From positions 1-26,576 of IMG/VR virus record IMGVR_UViG_3300037420_000738: 26,576 bases of DNA. One strand, 5' to 3'. Origin of the DNA: a virus (taxonomy: Duplodnaviria; Caudoviricetes). Shown here one piece after another: positions 18,074 through 24,124 of this stretch. The notes below the pieces were generated by a model, which worked only from the letters and a program-made list of their open reading frames with translations, had not been told where the DNA came from and made no database searches. The position numbers and the translations under genes are program-made. Every line of letters begins with the position of its first letter. The first letter of the stretch is position 1.

Positions 18074-18414
18074 GGCTCGTGGCTACCGATCCGACTGTCC
18101 AAGTAGCGGCACTCGGCATTGTTACGACCCTTATCTCATCGGCGACCATCGTCATCGTTGCTCGTCTGAACAATCGCAAGGAACGTACGGCTGCTGCTGA
18201 TGAAGGAGTAGAGGCTACGCTCCGCGAACGTATTGCGTTCAACGAGTACGAAATCCTCTCCCTTAAGGATTCTCGGGATCGCAAGGAAGAAGTCATCGTC
18301 CGACTCCGAACCGAGAATGAAGAGTTGGAAGACGAAAATGATGGACTCCGCACCGAGAATACTGAACTCAAGGCTGAGGTAGCGGCCTTGCGAGCCGGGA
18401 GGGAATACCCGTGA
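18070..18414 (+). CDS. Single-TM membrane protein with coiled-coil tail
   Basis: 114 aa; N-terminal hydrophobic helix then heptad repeats ('LRTENEEL...LRTENTEL'). Confidence 0.75.
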   Translation: MRLVATDPTVQVAALGIVTTLISSATIVIVARLNNRKERTAAADEGVEATLRERIAFNEYEILSLKDSRDRKEEVIVRLRTENEELEDENDGLRTENTELKAEVAALRAGREYP

Positions 18415-19040
18415 TGGACAAGAAAGAACTCAAGGAGCACGCGTATGACGTGTCTCCGAATCGGCGCACGCGCCGATGGATGGTGGCGCTTGCTATCATC
18501 ACTGCCCTTTCGTTCCTGACTGCGGTTACGGCAGGTTACTACGCGTGGCGTAACGCGCACAACGAGGCCCTCGCAGGCAAGCAGCTAGCCGAGCAGTTGC
18601 GCAGGTTGTGCGATCAGAACGGTACTGTTGAGTTCGAGAATCGGAACCTGTGCAAGAACGCGAAGGAGGTCGTGAAGGATGGGGCTGAAATCCAGGACAA
18701 GGAAATCGACGATCCTGATCCGAACGACCCTGATCCCGTCGACGACCCGGACCCCAACGACCCCGACCCCAAGAACGACCCGGAGAAGCAAGATCAAGAA
18801 GTACAAGACGATGAAACTCAGGATTCCGATCCCAACGACCCCGATCCGGTGGACGATCCTGACCCCGACGACCCGGATCCTGACGATCCGGATCCGAATG
18901 ACCCCGATCCCGACGATCCGGACCCGGCGTCCCCGTACGACTTCACGTTCCAGTTCACTGTACCGGGTCCGGGCGGTTCGCCGGGGACGACGTATACTGT
19001 GACTTGCAACTCCGGCACTGGTGCTTGCACCGTAAACTGA
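18411..19040 (+). CDS. Membrane-anchored protein with Asp-Pro pentapeptide repeats and two Cys pairs
   Basis: 209 aa; basic stretch plus TM helix, LC...LC pair, DPDP[N/D] repeats, C-terminal 'FTFQFT...TYTVTC...C'. Confidence 0.8.
   Translation: MMDKKELKEHAYDVSPNRRTRRWMVALAIITALSFLTAVTAGYYAWRNAHNEALAGKQLAEQLRRLCDQNGTVEFENRNLCKNAKEVVKDGAEIQDKEIDDPDPNDPDPVDDPDPNDPDPKNDPEKQDQEVQDDETQDSDPNDPDPVDDPDPDDPDPDDPDPNDPDPDDPDPASPYDFTFQFTVPGPGGSPGTTYTVTCNSGTGACTVN
18711..18926 (+). repeat. Coding tandem repeat, about 15-bp units encoding D-P-D-P-[N/D] and DxExQ variants
   Basis: Degenerate GAYCCNGAYCCN(A/G)AC units visible in the DNA, in frame with 18411..19040. Confidence 0.9.
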
Positions 19041-19054
19041 AAGGAACACCCGGC

Positions 19055-19591
19055 ATGGCAACATCTGAGAATGGTTATCAGGTCCTGTTCAGTAACAGGA
19101 CCCACGGCGACCTCCCGCGTCTGCGCAAGGTCGTCATTCCGGGAACAGGTCGTCATCTGTTCCTGCGAGACGGTTCGGTCGCGATGATCATCGCACATTT
19201 CGTCCTCTGGTTCCACCAGAAGATCGAGCCGATCAACAACAAGGTATGGGACGAGTGGGGTTGGGCAGTCCGACCCAAGCGCGGCCAGACCTCGGGCTAC
19301 TCCAACCACGCGTCCGGCACAGCGGCGGACATCAACGCCACCCTACACCCGCTCGGCAGGCGCTGGACCTTCAAGGCGTGGCAGTACACCAAGATGCGTG
19401 CTCGCCTCGCCCTGTACGCCGGGTGTCTCCGGCTCGGCATCGACTACAAGATTCGCCCGGACGAGATGCACGTGGAAATCAACCGCAGCCTCAAGTACTG
19501 CGAGAAGGTCGCACGCATGCTGTGCAGGACCAAGCGAGGTAAGCGTATCCTCAAGGCCAACCCAGGATTGCGGGAGGTCATCTTCTCATGA
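19055..19591 (+). CDS. Endolysin, M15-family (L-Ala-D-Glu/D-Ala-D-Ala type) zinc peptidase, 178 aa
   Basis: AAAGGA before ATG 19055; 'SENG', 'WGWAVR', 'SNHASGTAADIN' (SxHxxGxAxD) and 'DEMHVEI' zinc-ligand motifs. Confidence 0.9.
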   Translation: MATSENGYQVLFSNRTHGDLPRLRKVVIPGTGRHLFLRDGSVAMIIAHFVLWFHQKIEPINNKVWDEWGWAVRPKRGQTSGYSNHASGTAADINATLHPLGRRWTFKAWQYTKMRARLALYAGCLRLGIDYKIRPDEMHVEINRSLKYCEKVARMLCRTKRGKRILKANPGLREVIFS

Positions 19592-20304
19592 GGGACCAGA
19601 CCATCAACGTCATTGGCACGTGGAACGTGTGGAACGAAAACAGCGCAGACCGAGTCGCTGACGGCGTCAAGAAGATGTCGTCGAAGCACGGATGCGATGT
19701 GATCGTCCTGCAGGAAGTTTCGGGGTTCATTGGCCGGCTCCGCAAGGTAGCCTTGAACCTCGGCTTCTTCCTTCACGTGATGAAGATGGGTAAGATGCGG
19801 GGGATCGACCTCGCGGAGGCTCGCTCGACTGTAATCCTGCGAGGTCTGTGGATTCCACTCATCGCGTCGGGGTTCATTCGGATCGTCACGAAGTGGATCG
19901 GACCGAAGGCAAGGATCATCCGGCCCGGTCGTACGTTCCCGAGGATCAAGGCTGGCAAGCCCGGAATCCAGATCGTCGGCTTCCACGGCAACACCGGCAG
20001 ATTCCGGTTCAAGCGCAACCGCCGCTCGTGGCAGGAGACGCTCAACAAGCTGGACAAGCGAGTAGTCAAGTGGAAGAAGCGCGGTGTCCGGTTCGTCATC
20101 ATCGGCGACACGAACGACCGACGCAGCAACAGGGACTTGGAGTCCCTGTGGGCTTTCGCTCGCAAGCACGGTCTGGACCTCGTACACGACGAAGCGACTA
20201 TTGACTACTCGCTGTGTTGGGGTTTCGCCAGCACGCACTATGAGTCCTTCACCAAGATGGGGTCGGACGACCACCGGTACGGCATCCTCACCGTCACCTA
20301 CTAG
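19588..20304 (+). CDS. Endonuclease/exonuclease/phosphatase (EEP) family protein
   Basis: 238 aa with ordered EEP motifs TWNV, LQE, H (GFHG), GDTN, IDY and SDDH; very Lys/Arg-rich; ATGA overlap with the endolysin. Confidence 0.85.
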   Translation: MRDQTINVIGTWNVWNENSADRVADGVKKMSSKHGCDVIVLQEVSGFIGRLRKVALNLGFFLHVMKMGKMRGIDLAEARSTVILRGLWIPLIASGFIRIVTKWIGPKARIIRPGRTFPRIKAGKPGIQIVGFHGNTGRFRFKRNRRSWQETLNKLDKRVVKWKKRGVRFVIIGDTNDRRSNRDLESLWAFARKHGLDLVHDEATIDYSLCWGFASTHYESFTKMGSDDHRYGILTVTY

Positions 20305-20557: not shown

Positions 20558-20601
20558 GAGAAGCCCGGCCTTGTTCGCGCAGGGGGCCGGGCTTCTCATT
20601 T
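20558..20601 (+). terminator. Intrinsic terminator ending the structural/lysis operon
   Basis: Perfect 13-bp arms GAGAAGCCCGGCC (20558-20570) / GGCCGGGCTTCTC (20585-20597) followed by ATTT, 2 nt after the holin stop. Confidence 0.85.
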
Positions 20602-20610
20602 GCCAGGGGT

Positions 20611-20639
20611 TTGACTGCCAGGCAAGGACATGGTAGGAT
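20611..20639 (+). promoter_or_regulatory. Housekeeping-sigma (SigA/HrdB-type) promoter
   Basis: TTGACT (20611-20616), 17-bp spacer, TGn-TAGGAT (20634-20639). Confidence 0.75.
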
Positions 20640-20667: not shown

Positions 20668-20853
20668 ATGCGTTTCGAATTGACGGTGTCCGTGGAGGTC
20701 GAGCGGATCGAGGGCAAGTTCGCCTCGCGCGACGAAATCCGTGACAACATCGCAGAAGCCCTAAACGACGCCAACCCCGGCACCCTTGACAGCCTCGGCG
20801 CGGACGGAACGTCCTCGTACGAAGTAATCGATTGGGTAGTGGAGGACGACTGA
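20668..20853 (+). CDS. Small acidic hypothetical protein (61 aa), coupled to the purB-like gene
   Basis: AGGAGG before ATG 20668 (MRFELTVSVEVER...); stop overlaps the next start (TGATG). The longer 20530 start would span the terminator and promoter. Confidence 0.8.
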   Translation: MRFELTVSVEVERIEGKFASRDEIRDNIAEALNDANPGTLDSLGADGTSSYEVIDWVVEDD

Positions 20854-22115
20854 TGCATCCCCGATACCCGGCCCCGTTGGCCGAAGATATATTCAGTGAC
20901 GAGCAGAAGGTGGAGGCGTGGCGTCGGATCACCGATGCGTACGCCGTATCCTCGATCAAGGAACTGGAACGCAACAACTCGGCCACCCAGGAGGACCTGA
21001 TCCGCCGATTGTACGACCGGCACACTCCAACCGCTGAGGCTGTTCGGACCCGCGAGGCCGCCATGGGTCACGATGTGGTGGCGTTCATCTCGCTATACAC
21101 CGAAGATATGTCCGGCGACCTCAAGCGCCACATCCACCGGGGGCTCACATCGTCAGACCTCGTCGAGTTGTCCCACCACACCGCGATGTTCAAGCACGCC
21201 TCGATGCTGGCGCTCCGGGTAGAGAAATTGATCGCTACGTTGGGCAGGTGGGAGATGCAAGGGACCGCCCGCATTGGCCGGACCCACGGTCAGATCGCGT
21301 CGGTCACCACCTTGGGGCATCAGATGCGAGTGCATCAGGACGTGCTGCATCGGCTGGTTTGGGAGCTGAGACAGCATGAGACCCTGATCAAGACACCGGG
21401 ACCCACTGGTTTCTCGCCGTGGGTTATGGGGCGAGGTCGACGTGTAACTCAGGCGTTGAAGGGGCGTTTGGTTCCGAGCACGCAGGTGATCCCGCGCGAC
21501 TACCAGATCGAGTGGGCCGCTATCTACCTGAGGCTCGCTGTGGTCCTGGAGAACCTCGCGCTACAGGTGCGGCTCGGTAGTCGCTCGGACGTGGGAGACC
21601 TTAGAGAGGGGGCCACGGCGAATCGCGTGGGCTCGTCGGCCATGCCGCACAAGAAGAATCCGATCGACTCGGAGAAGGTGTGCGGGCTGGCTCGGGTAGC
21701 GCGCGGGTACTTCATGACCATCGCTGAGGGAGGCGCGCTTTGGGAGGAACGCGACCTGACGAACTCGTCGATGGAACGGATCGCGGTTCCGGACCTCGCC
21801 GCCGTGGTCGAACACATGCTCGACACGATGACCTTGGTGATGTCCAACCTCGAGTTCAGACCAGATCGTAACGACCTGACTCGGGCGGCGGTGTGGTCGA
21901 ATCTGATGCAAACGTACCTGCAGGAGGTCTGTTCCATCGGATCGATCGAGGCCAGTCAGGTCGTGCGTAAGGCAATCCCGACCGAGCATCATCACGTCTC
22001 GTTCAGCAAGCAGGTAGTCTACAACTGGATCGTGGACAACTACTCCCAGGCCGAAGCCAATCGGTGGGTCCGCGACGTGGATGCGATCCTCGACGACGCG
22101 CTTCCGAAGGGGTGA
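20853..22115 (+). CDS. purB: Adenylosuccinate lyase-like protein (fumarase/aspartase superfamily), 420 aa
   Basis: GGAGGA before ATG 20853; motifs 'HDVVAF', 'HRGLTSSD', 'GRTHGQ' (catalytic His), 'STQ..PRD', signature 'GSSAMPHKKNP..SE...GLAR', 'ERDLTNSSMER'. Confidence 0.92.
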   Translation: MHPRYPAPLAEDIFSDEQKVEAWRRITDAYAVSSIKELERNNSATQEDLIRRLYDRHTPTAEAVRTREAAMGHDVVAFISLYTEDMSGDLKRHIHRGLTSSDLVELSHHTAMFKHASMLALRVEKLIATLGRWEMQGTARIGRTHGQIASVTTLGHQMRVHQDVLHRLVWELRQHETLIKTPGPTGFSPWVMGRGRRVTQALKGRLVPSTQVIPRDYQIEWAAIYLRLAVVLENLALQVRLGSRSDVGDLREGATANRVGSSAMPHKKNPIDSEKVCGLARVARGYFMTIAEGGALWEERDLTNSSMERIAVPDLAAVVEHMLDTMTLVMSNLEFRPDRNDLTRAAVWSNLMQTYLQEVCSIGSIEASQVVRKAIPTEHHHVSFSKQVVYNWIVDNYSQAEANRWVRDVDAILDDALPKG

Positions 22116-22240: not shown

Positions 22241-22270
22241 TTGACAGCAAGGAAAGGAGCGTGCTATCGT
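22241..22270 (+). promoter_or_regulatory. Housekeeping-sigma promoter, probably giving a leaderless mRNA
   Basis: TTGACA (22241-22246), 18-bp spacer, TGn-TATCGT (22265-22270); ATG at 22278 begins 7 nt after the -10 box. Confidence 0.7.
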
Positions 22271-22277
22271 GGTCGAC

Positions 22278-22505
22278 ATGAGCACGCGAGCACAGGTGAC
22301 CAACCAGAAGGTCGCCGACGACCTCGGGATCACTCATTCGGCGGTGAGCCGGATTAGATCGGGGGACCGGCGTCCGTCCCTCGATGTGATGCTCAAGATG
22401 CATGAGGAGTGGAAGTGGCCGCTCGACGTCCAGGCGTTCTGTCTCACGATGGGCACGTACACAGAGAACTTCGAAGCCGAACTGGTCAAGCGGTATGACC
22501 AGTGA
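22278..22505 (+). CDS. XRE/Cro-like helix-turn-helix DNA-binding protein (75 aa; alternative GTG start 22269)
   Basis: 'TNQKVADDLGITHSAVSRIRSGDRRPS' is a clear HTH_3-type motif. Confidence 0.88.
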   Translation: MSTRAQVTNQKVADDLGITHSAVSRIRSGDRRPSLDVMLKMHEEWKWPLDVQAFCLTMGTYTENFEAELVKRYDQ

Positions 22506-22725
22506 GTGTGGCGGTTGTCGAGGGATGGGATCTCATCAGCGTTTGTGCGTGAACCATCCTGATTACCACCCGTGGCGTAGGCTGGCGCAAATGGCTGAGG
22601 ACATCGGTGACACCATCGGCTCCAACGACACGGCCATAGCCAACACGGCTTACAGCCTGTCCAGCAGGATCAAGGAACTGATCGAGCAGAAGCCATACCG
22701 GAGGCGTAATGCATCCCCCTCTTAA
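22495..22725 (+). CDS. Small hypothetical protein with CxxC...H...C putative zinc site (76 aa)
   Basis: ATG 22495 overlapping the HTH gene end; 'ECGGCRGMGSHQRLC'; fills the gap before the helicase. Confidence 0.65.
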   Translation: MTSECGGCRGMGSHQRLCVNHPDYHPWRRLAQMAEDIGDTIGSNDTAIANTAYSLSSRIKELIEQKPYRRRNASPS

Positions 22726-24124
22726 GGAGTATCAGCGTGAAAACGTTGAGTGGATCCAACGCGTCGGGCGAGGGTTGCTCGCTGACGAGCCGGGCCTCGG
22801 CAAATCCCGATCAGCCCTTGAAGGTTTCGCCGGTGCAGGTAAGGTCCTCATTGTGGCCCCCTCGTTGGTCGCCGACTCGGGTGTCTGGCACGACGAAGTC
22901 GAGCGATGGGGAGACGACGATACCGAGTACCACCTAGCCACCTACTCGATGCTGAACGACCGCATTGATCAGCGAACGCCGAAACAGATCGAGCAGGGCA
23001 AGCCGCATCGGTATAAGCCTATCAACCGACTCCGTAAAGAGTGGCGCGGTCATTGGGACGCCGTCATCGTCGACGAGGCTCATTGCATCAAGGGTCGGGG
23101 CGTAGCCTGGACCAAGGCTGTCAAGCAACTTGGCCGCAACTCCGATCAAATCCTGCTCATGACGGGAACCCCGATCCCTAATTGGGCACACGAGGTCTTT
23201 ACCCTCCTGCAGACCATTTATCCCGAGGAGGGCAAACGTGGCAACGAACTCGGGTCGTTCTGGCGATGGGCCGGTGAATGGTTCGACACATCTCCTACTC
23301 GATTTTCCAACGGAAATCCAGTGGTTGGAGACCTGTTGGGGTGTACACCAGCGTGCATGCGCCGGAACGCCGATGACCCATGTAAACATTATGTCAAGTT
23401 CGCCCGAGAGAACTTTGGTGAGCGCTACATGCGCCACCTGCGGGACGAGCATCTGGACCTTCCTCCCCTCCGATTTGTTGACATCCCTACACCGCTGGAC
23501 GCTAGCACGCGGGCTGCTTACCGTGAATTGAGGGACGAGTTTGCAGCCGATGTCGACGGTCGCGAAGTTCTTGCTTGGTCTCAGGGCGCGAAGAACGTTC
23601 TGCTGGACAAGATGACCACTAGTCCGTGGCTGCTTCACAAGGAAGGGGAACCCTGCGGTGGCAAGTTCGAAACGCTTCGGGAAGACCTATCGGCGAGGGA
23701 CGAACCAACGCTGGTTCTTGCCCATTACCGTGATAGTGTCGAGGGAGCAGCTAGGGTTGCCGCCTCTGTCGGCAAGCGAGCAGCCTTCATCCATGGCGGC
23801 ACCAGCGACAAGCAGAACGCGAAGGTGGTACGGGATTTCAAGGGAGGACGACTTGATGTCCTGGTTGGAAGCCTCGAAACACTCGCCGAAGGGTTGACCC
23901 TCACCATCGCGGACACGGCTATCTTCCTCGAACGGTCATACAAGCCGTCCCGTAACACGCAGGCTACTTATCGGATCCACCGTCTGGGTCAAGAAAAGGA
24001 ATGCACCATTCGGCGCTATCTGACTCCCAAGTCGGTTGACTCTCGCAAAGAGCGCCTGCTCACCACTAAGACCGATCACCAGATGCGGACGCTTACCGCA
24101 GCCGAATTCGCACGCCTAGCATGA
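22709..24124 (+). CDS. SNF2-type (superfamily 2) DNA helicase
   Basis: 471 aa; 'LKEYQ' Q-motif, 'LADEPGLGKS' Walker A, 'VIVDEAH', 'MTGTP', 'EGLTLT', 'QATYRIHRLGQ' motif VI. Confidence 0.95.
   Translation: MHPPLKEYQRENVEWIQRVGRGLLADEPGLGKSRSALEGFAGAGKVLIVAPSLVADSGVWHDEVERWGDDDTEYHLATYSMLNDRIDQRTPKQIEQGKPHRYKPINRLRKEWRGHWDAVIVDEAHCIKGRGVAWTKAVKQLGRNSDQILLMTGTPIPNWAHEVFTLLQTIYPEEGKRGNELGSFWRWAGEWFDTSPTRFSNGNPVVGDLLGCTPACMRRNADDPCKHYVKFARENFGERYMRHLRDEHLDLPPLRFVDIPTPLDASTRAAYRELRDEFAADVDGREVLAWSQGAKNVLLDKMTTSPWLLHKEGEPCGGKFETLREDLSARDEPTLVLAHYRDSVEGAARVAASVGKRAAFIHGGTSDKQNAKVVRDFKGGRLDVLVGSLETLAEGLTLTIADTAIFLERSYKPSRNTQATYRIHRLGQEKECTIRRYLTPKSVDSRKERLLTTKTDHQMRTLTAAEFARLA

Follow-up and report, generated by a model that had tools for sequence, protein, structure and literature searches.

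A PurB-like lyase gene of an uncultured actinophage with a likely role in PurZ0-type synthesis of Z nucleotides

The stretch of viral DNA analysed here (the window, 26,576 nucleotides; Duplodnaviria, Caudoviricetes) contains a gene for a PurB-like adenylosuccinate lyase, and the question is what a phage gains from an enzyme whose step in Z synthesis is usually credited to the host. The window is all there is of record IMGVR_UViG_3300037420_000738 (G000), which is about 45% complete. Three public metagenome runs from soil or rhizosphere contain the stretch, and in two of them contigs extend about 2,960 bases beyond its end; these runs may be where the record comes from and do not count as independent evidence. 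On the comparisons below, the protein is an intact enzyme of the lyase family. Its phage, an actinophage with a genome of roughly 51 kb, likely has Z DNA of the PurZ0 type, and the likely role of the lyase is to convert N6-succino-2-amino-dAMP (dSMP) to dZMP by splitting off fumarate. In the proposed route, dGMP to dSMP to dZMP, PurZ0 would make dSMP, and the phage lyase would cleave it to dZMP and fumarate. Removal of fumarate is established chemistry for the PurB family. dSMP is the predicted working substrate during infection, and the lyase probably still cleaves ordinary adenylosuccinate. The features of the locus are as follows.

20558..20597, plus strand: GC-rich hairpin 3' of the holin gene (z -4.2)
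20611..20639, plus strand: sigma-70-like promoter match, TTGACT-17-TAGGAT, with TG; not significant alone
20668..20853, plus strand: acidic 61-aa ORF with no function assigned; its stop overlaps the purB start (TGATG)
20853..22115, plus strand: 420-aa PurB-like adenylosuccinate lyase of the short (Bacillus/Thermotoga) type; belongs to a phage clade
22122..22160, plus strand: GC-rich hairpin 3' of purB, without a T-run (z -4.5)
22269..22505, plus strand: HTH protein with its own promoter-like site at 22241-22270; 46% identical to the HTH protein at the same post-purB position in the relative G001
22709..24124, plus strand: SNF2-type helicase; nearest cultured matches 49.5-56% identical

Cellular PurBs are of three types, short, E. 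coli and mycobacterial. The translation of 20853-22115 runs through 420 aa without a stop, and RTHG (with H145), SSAMPHKKNP, KTPGPTG and LWEERD, the catalytic His and segments listed in the first-pass annotation, were all located in it. The protein matches Pfam Lyase_1 (E 3.9e-23), and its top sequence matches in the PDB are the short-type PurBs 2PFM, 1F1O and 2X75. An AlphaFold model (pLDDT 93.9) gave a TM of 0.82 against B. anthracis PurB. Together with the SSxMPxKxNxxxxE signature and the helical-bundle fold of the model, the Lyase_1 match places the protein in the fumarase/aspartase superfamily. It resembles the cellular short-type PurBs (B. anthracis 2PFM, B. subtilis 1F1O, S. aureus 2X75 and T. 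maritima 1C3C) in fold (TM 0.77-0.82) and active-site residues, but shares only about 26-33% identity with them, reads PGPTG in place of the SGAVG loop and has a divergent C-terminal domain (domain 3) with no ADSL_C match. TIGR00928 (purB) is its best NCBIfam family (232.2 bits; next family 96 bits), but the score is below the curated cut-off of 326.2, and the protein is therefore filed as PurB-like, outside the equivalog. Among the residues named for catalysis and AMP binding in the S. aureus PurB structure paper (PMC2917274), R4, Y5, H73, D74, T99, S100, T144, H145, Q211, S262, E274, S305 and R309 are kept; the exception is N276, which is K275 here, at a position that is also variable in cellular PurBs. 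The catalytic His and Ser and the equivalents of His68, R4, Y5, D69, Q212, S306 and R310 are likewise present. By homology to H141 and S262 of the S. aureus enzyme, His145 would serve as the acid and Ser262 as the base, as in cellular PurB, and the enzyme would be a tetramer. The GC content of purB (0.62; GC3 0.79) lies inside the range of the other genes in the window. The locus is a real, intact gene of the adenylosuccinate lyase family, and the stop-free frame, the Lyase_1 and PDB matches and the model bear out the first-pass annotation in this respect.

The window is a siphovirus fragment with genes for scaffold, capsid, connectors, tail, tape measure, endolysin, holin, PurB, the HTH protein and the SNF2 helicase. 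Its capsid and helicase matches point to an actinobacterial host; the nearest cultured helicase matches belong to phages of Curtobacterium, Micrococcus, Microbacterium and Arthrobacter, groups that also occur among the PurZ0 matches. No second pur gene was found within the window, and purB is indeed without neighbouring host pur genes, as first described; it is flanked by phage capsid, tail, endolysin and holin genes upstream and by the HTH and helicase genes downstream. The further claim that purB occupies its own promoter-to-hairpin unit holds in part. Both hairpins flanking the pair of 61-aa ORF and purB are real and strong, although a terminator scan called neither; the one at 20558-20597 likely ends the lysis transcript. 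However, purB is not alone, as the 61-aa ORF lies between it and the promoter-like site, and this site is one of three found where shuffles gave 2.0 ± 1.6. The single homolog of the 61-aa ORF among the loci compared is on L227 (42%), and in this complete record (G060) neither PurB nor PurZ0 was seen. Three other products of the plus strand of the window are recorded here. A protein of 640 aa (280-2202), encoded immediately 5' of the head genes, has a 2H phosphoesterase (2'-5' RNA ligase/LigT-like) domain in its middle and homologs in two capsid relatives, L230 and L232 (34-35%). A basic 238-aa protein of the endonuclease/exonuclease/phosphatase family (19588-20304) lies between endolysin and holin, and no homolog was found among the loci compared. 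A predicted membrane protein 5' of the endolysin (18411-19040), with a long DPDPN/DPDPD repeat tract at 18707-18926, is perhaps spanin-like.

No PurA or PurZ match was found in the 45%-complete record, and queries for DpoZ, Dut and the DmtZ region from Archimedes and Hiyaa matched nothing in the window, which agrees with the initial statement that purZ and dpoZ are outside it. A search with the clade alignment gave 71 viral loci, the closest being G001. G001 is collinear with the window from the capsid through the last matched gene, with identities of 56% (capsid), 65% (major tail), 38% (PurB), 46% (HTH), 52% (helicase) and 41-46% (two later genes). Beyond the matched genes it encodes a prim-pol, a polymerase and then the start of PurZ. 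The polymerase passes the cut-off of NF038381 (DpoZ_2) with 599.6 bits against 350, and PurZ is represented by its first 93 codons, with the Ser motif GSEAKG, as the contig ends inside purZ0. The start of purZ0 lies about 12-12.5 kb past the position matching the window end. Two further relatives, G002 and G003, carry PurB, helicase, PurZ0, DpoZ-like and Dut/DmtZ-like genes together. PurZ0 with Ser for Asp13 of PurA is thus absent from the 45%-complete record and present in the syntenic G001, G002 and G003; in the phage of the window, purZ0 and dpoZ would lie in the missing genome half, about 10-13 kb past the window end. The Z role is well supported but indirect, because it is the syntenic relatives that carry PurZ0, DpoZ and DutZ/DmtZ, and G001, the sole clade member with visible gene context, is basal in the clade and 38% identical. 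The proposed pathway link stands through these relatives, but not all of the partners first named for it: the PurZ0-type set given in PMC12884076 is DutZ and DmtZ, not DatZ and MazZ. Palindrome avoidance was considered as a proxy for Z and rejected: the window (0.47 for GC-only against 0.82 for A-containing 6-mers) resembles several Z phages and also several non-Z controls, so that the measure does not separate the two. The PurZ0 phages of L201 and L182 (G037, G026) have zero GATC and zero CCGG in 17-21 kb; avoidance of GATC is odd if every A is Z.

A survey based on the helicase covered 39 of 50 helicase-related records and two capsid-related ones; nine similar records of 43-44 kb were excluded as redundant and two short ones were searched separately. 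PurZ0 is present in 18 of these 41 records, and these include every helicase relative of 46% identity or more and 70% completeness or more (15/15), six of them apparently related isolates. Full-length PurB occurs in 3 of the 41, each time with PurZ0. PurB appears dispensable in many Z phages, since 13 of the 15 close helicase relatives with PurZ0 are without it. The reverse survey took 40 of the best 80 PurZ0 loci, on longer contigs, ranked by likeness to Archimedes and with related genomes included; PurB was found in 23 of the 38 records searched and in 16 of the 22 that are at least 90% complete. At E up to 1e-30, a profile search gave 1,427 representatives. Scans of viral contigs with single proteins gave no PurB relatives and two helicase relatives, and metagenome and genome scans (1/64 parts each) gave distant matches only (at most 37%). 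A motif scan gave 14 loci; among the five new ones examined, three have Ser-type PurZ0 and two Asp-type PurA, and the motifs of the window's clade are absent from all five. Pseudomonas phage Y5, an unverified record with two tandem lyase-family genes and no purZ found in 41 kb, was set aside.

Viral PurB also occurs paired with ordinary Asp-type PurA (23 loci grouped). This pairing would fit a plain auxiliary metabolic gene by which a phage of ordinary DNA raises the synthesis of AMP and IMP, as would the absence of Z genes from the window and the two more distant helicase relatives G048 (helicase 44%, 84% complete) and G047 (40%, 76% complete), which have neither PurB nor PurZ0. Such a role is unlikely, however, for the PurA-paired viral PurBs are distant from the window protein (about 26-31% identity) and outside its clade, G001 has both PurZ0 and DpoZ, and PurZ0 occurs in every one of the 15 close helicase relatives. 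Separately, L005, L006, L020, L021 and related loci form a tight viral clade in which an Asp-type purA (GLQHGDEGKG) adjoins purB, in some cases on contigs longer than 200 kb; theirs is an ordinary purine-boosting pair.

The window lyase and the G001 PurB share a clade of about 100 database proteins (SH-aLRT 100). For the 106 proteins that score highest around the query (P0001-P0105, P0109), no contig exceeds 54.6 kb, and 17 of these proteins are encoded on contigs of 50-55 kb; the same lyase protein also occurs in a record on a 50,922-bp contig. The motifs of the clade are KxPGPTG and W[ED][DE]RD[LI][ST]N, and its rows (n=107) have E or D at 298 in 93, N304 in 106 and G72 in 98 cases. The PurBs of other PurZ0 phages mostly retain His (17/30 at 298, 22/30 at 304), in a group of 30 that includes near-duplicates and L007, a 54%-complete record in which purZ was not found. 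E298, N304, G72 and P182 are markers of the window's clade only, and its divergent segments are dispensable for Z, since the PurBs of other PurZ0 phages do not share them. A Pro in the loop (GAVG to GPxG) is found in 30/30 short PurBs of the PurZ0-phage group and 89/107 clade rows, in 3/80 and 6/80 members of two mostly cellular sets, and in 29/32 mycobacterial-type host enzymes and 12/23 PurA-paired viral PurBs. It was rejected as a marker of Z, being frequent in the last two groups, and G001 reads GATG; S101 (TSSD) was rejected as well, since it is common in cells (62/80). No residue change unique to Z-phage PurBs was found. The first-pass reading of the divergent segments as a specialisation is not upheld, as the markers are clade-wide, His prevails at 298 and 304 in the other PurZ0-phage enzymes and the loop Pro is shared with host enzymes. 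A PurB phylogeny was raised in the same annotation; in a quick tree built from 69 selected rows, the window's clade includes the PurB of the PurZ0-bearing G001, and phage PurBs as a whole formed a polytomy.

The changes shared across the clade around the nucleotide site (G72, E298, N304), the score below the TIGR00928 cut-off (232 against 326 bits) and the divergent C-terminal domain without ADSL_C might also suit a fumarate lyase repurposed for another succinyl adduct, in a different base modification. This is very improbable, as no other family comes close to the PurB score, the residues that bind phosphate and ribose are retained and no other modification gene was recognised among 14 G001 proteins scanned.

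Similar PurB-like lyases, short-type enzymes in siphoviruses, are encoded by Streptomyces phages Hiyaa, Spocter, Keanu and Galactica and by Gordonia phages Ghobes, Archimedes, Sapo and Frizzle. Their genomes also encode PurZ0, polymerase I and dUTPase-like proteins, and in Archimedes purB adjoins the helicase gene, as in the window. The window lyase is, however, only 30-38% identical to their PurBs and belongs to a separate, large uncultured clade with its own motifs. PurB matches were found in 29 phage-collection records; among the cultured actinophages of this set, the gene is annotated in 5 Streptomyces and 6 Gordonia records, all 11 of them in groups with PurZ0. The novelty first attached to the gene was overrated: phage PurB is already annotated in these 11 records, the window lyase adds to a known, annotated kind, and Suppl. 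Fig. 1 of PMC12884076 (2026) allows that PurB may come from "uncharacterized phage proteins". The main text of that paper assigns the conversion of dSMP to dZMP to host enzymes and contains neither "PurB" nor "lyase". The main texts of PMC8342488 and PMC12944874 contain neither "purB" nor "lyase", and the consulted portions of PMC10912719 and PMC13539675 add nothing further on who performs this step. The literature searched holds no test of a phage PurB and no argument from host type; the 2021 Science papers and the 2023 PurZ0 paper are outside that set and may mention phage purB.

The lyase has the same predicted reaction and the same catalytic residues as the host PurB of the PurZ/PurZ0 pathway, but is encoded by the phage. 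A Z genome in which the host enzyme handles dSMP, and the phage copy only adds capacity by easing competition from adenylosuccinate and SAICAR in the burst, has a little less than an even chance. Published accounts credit host PurB with the dSMP step, the S-2L cluster brings about conversion of DNA in E. coli, where host enzymes complete the pathway, phage PurBs are patchy and not one resolved clade, and the Z-phage enzymes lack a unique residue change. Against extra capacity, whether cultured small phages have purB follows the PurB type of their hosts, and those on hosts with a TSRD-reading PurB do not simply carry the host-type gene.

These last points belong to a more tentative refinement of the dSMP role, by which the phage needs its own lyase because the Arg of the host TSRD-type PurB is predicted to clash with the 2-amino group of dSMP. 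After the conserved TS, the cellular mycobacterial-type genes read have Arg (TSRD; 32/32) and the E. coli-type homologs, a narrow sample of closely related sequences, have Glu (TSED; 240/240), while the short type mostly has Ser or Thr, with no Arg among 80 loci. Adenine N1 neighbours C2, which carries the amino group of Z. The Arg aligns with T95 of S. aureus PurB, which bonds adenine N1 according to PMC2917274. Mycobacterial-type PurB gave strong matches in 125 of 201 sampled Actinomycetes genomes (129 matches minus 4 weak ones near 30%, including G121) and the E. coli type occurs in 11. By name, the mycobacterial (TSRD) type was found in Streptomyces, Nocardia, Tsukamurella and Mycobacterium, and the E. 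coli type in Arthrobacter, Microbacterium (including M. foliorum), Phycicoccus, Pedococcus and Knoellia. The Gordonia enzyme was not seen by name, which weakens the case, and would be mycobacterial to judge from its kin.

Among cultured small PurZ/PurZ0 phages, purB is present only in the Gordonia and Streptomyces records, and there it is of the short type, unlike the type of their hosts (that of Gordonia by kinship). PurB queries of the three types gave no match among PurZ-like-bearing records of Arthrobacter (105), Microbacterium (18) and Vibrio (38) phages, the first two genera having E. coli-type PurB, nor in PurZ0 phages of Micrococcus and Curtobacterium, nor in other PurZ phages. By host genus purB is present in 2/2 (TSRD) against 0/10 (Fisher p 0.015, uncorrected for phylogeny), in a table with only two independent PurB-positive cultured lineages and with several host types entered as background. 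The PurZ0 phages G078, G094 and G096, which carry Dut/DmtZ-like genes, have mycobacterial-type PurBs that read TSAD or TSHD, without the Arg (SH-aLRT 99 for the grouping of the two placed), as the clash would predict; however, two of the three are close kin, the DpoZ_2 model matched none of them, and all three copies lack both Args, which could be decay. The Arg may also merely replace one missing from NEGD (ERD in the other types). The refinement presumes a TSRD-type host for the window's phage, and some actinomycetes, namely Actinomadura and Parafrankia, have short-type PurB. Flavobacterium phage MaF61, with a Ser-type PurA/PurZ-like gene and an E. coli-type PurB, is an exception if that gene is a PurZ (Fisher p 0.038 when so counted).

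Several of these records were observed in their own right. L482, L483 and L484 (G096, G094, G078) are near-complete PurZ0 phages of 73-94 kb with a long mycobacterial-type PurB. MaF61 (L481:104-1447) is cultured and large, its PurA-like protein reads GSFGSSGKG with Ser at the Asp13 position and its PurB reads TSQD; it is possibly an unrecognised modified-purine phage. L316 (G050) has a shortened, 303-aa mycobacterial-type PurB-like ORF with TSAD and without the signature loop, and PurZ0 was not found in this 61%-complete record.

With regard to the biology of these phages, current descriptions leave the conversion of dSMP to dZMP to the host, although a lyase gene of the virus itself is present in most of the near-complete PurZ0 contigs checked (16 of 22), and the window gene represents a clade of about 100 such lyases from uncultured soil phages. 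It is conceivable, although doubtful at present, that purB acts in Z-DNA phages as a determinant of host range: the TSRD PurB, the dominant type in actinomycetes, could not process the 2-amino intermediate, and an Arg-free lyase would be brought along, either of the short type (the soil clade of the window, Ghobes, Hiyaa) or as a captured host type minus the Arg. If true, the host-type pattern would explain why some Z phages have purB and others do not, the "host PurB" step would be valid for some hosts only, and the host group of an uncultured Z phage could be predicted from the presence of purB. The lead singles out one residue and is relevant to building Z-DNA in actinomycete hosts.
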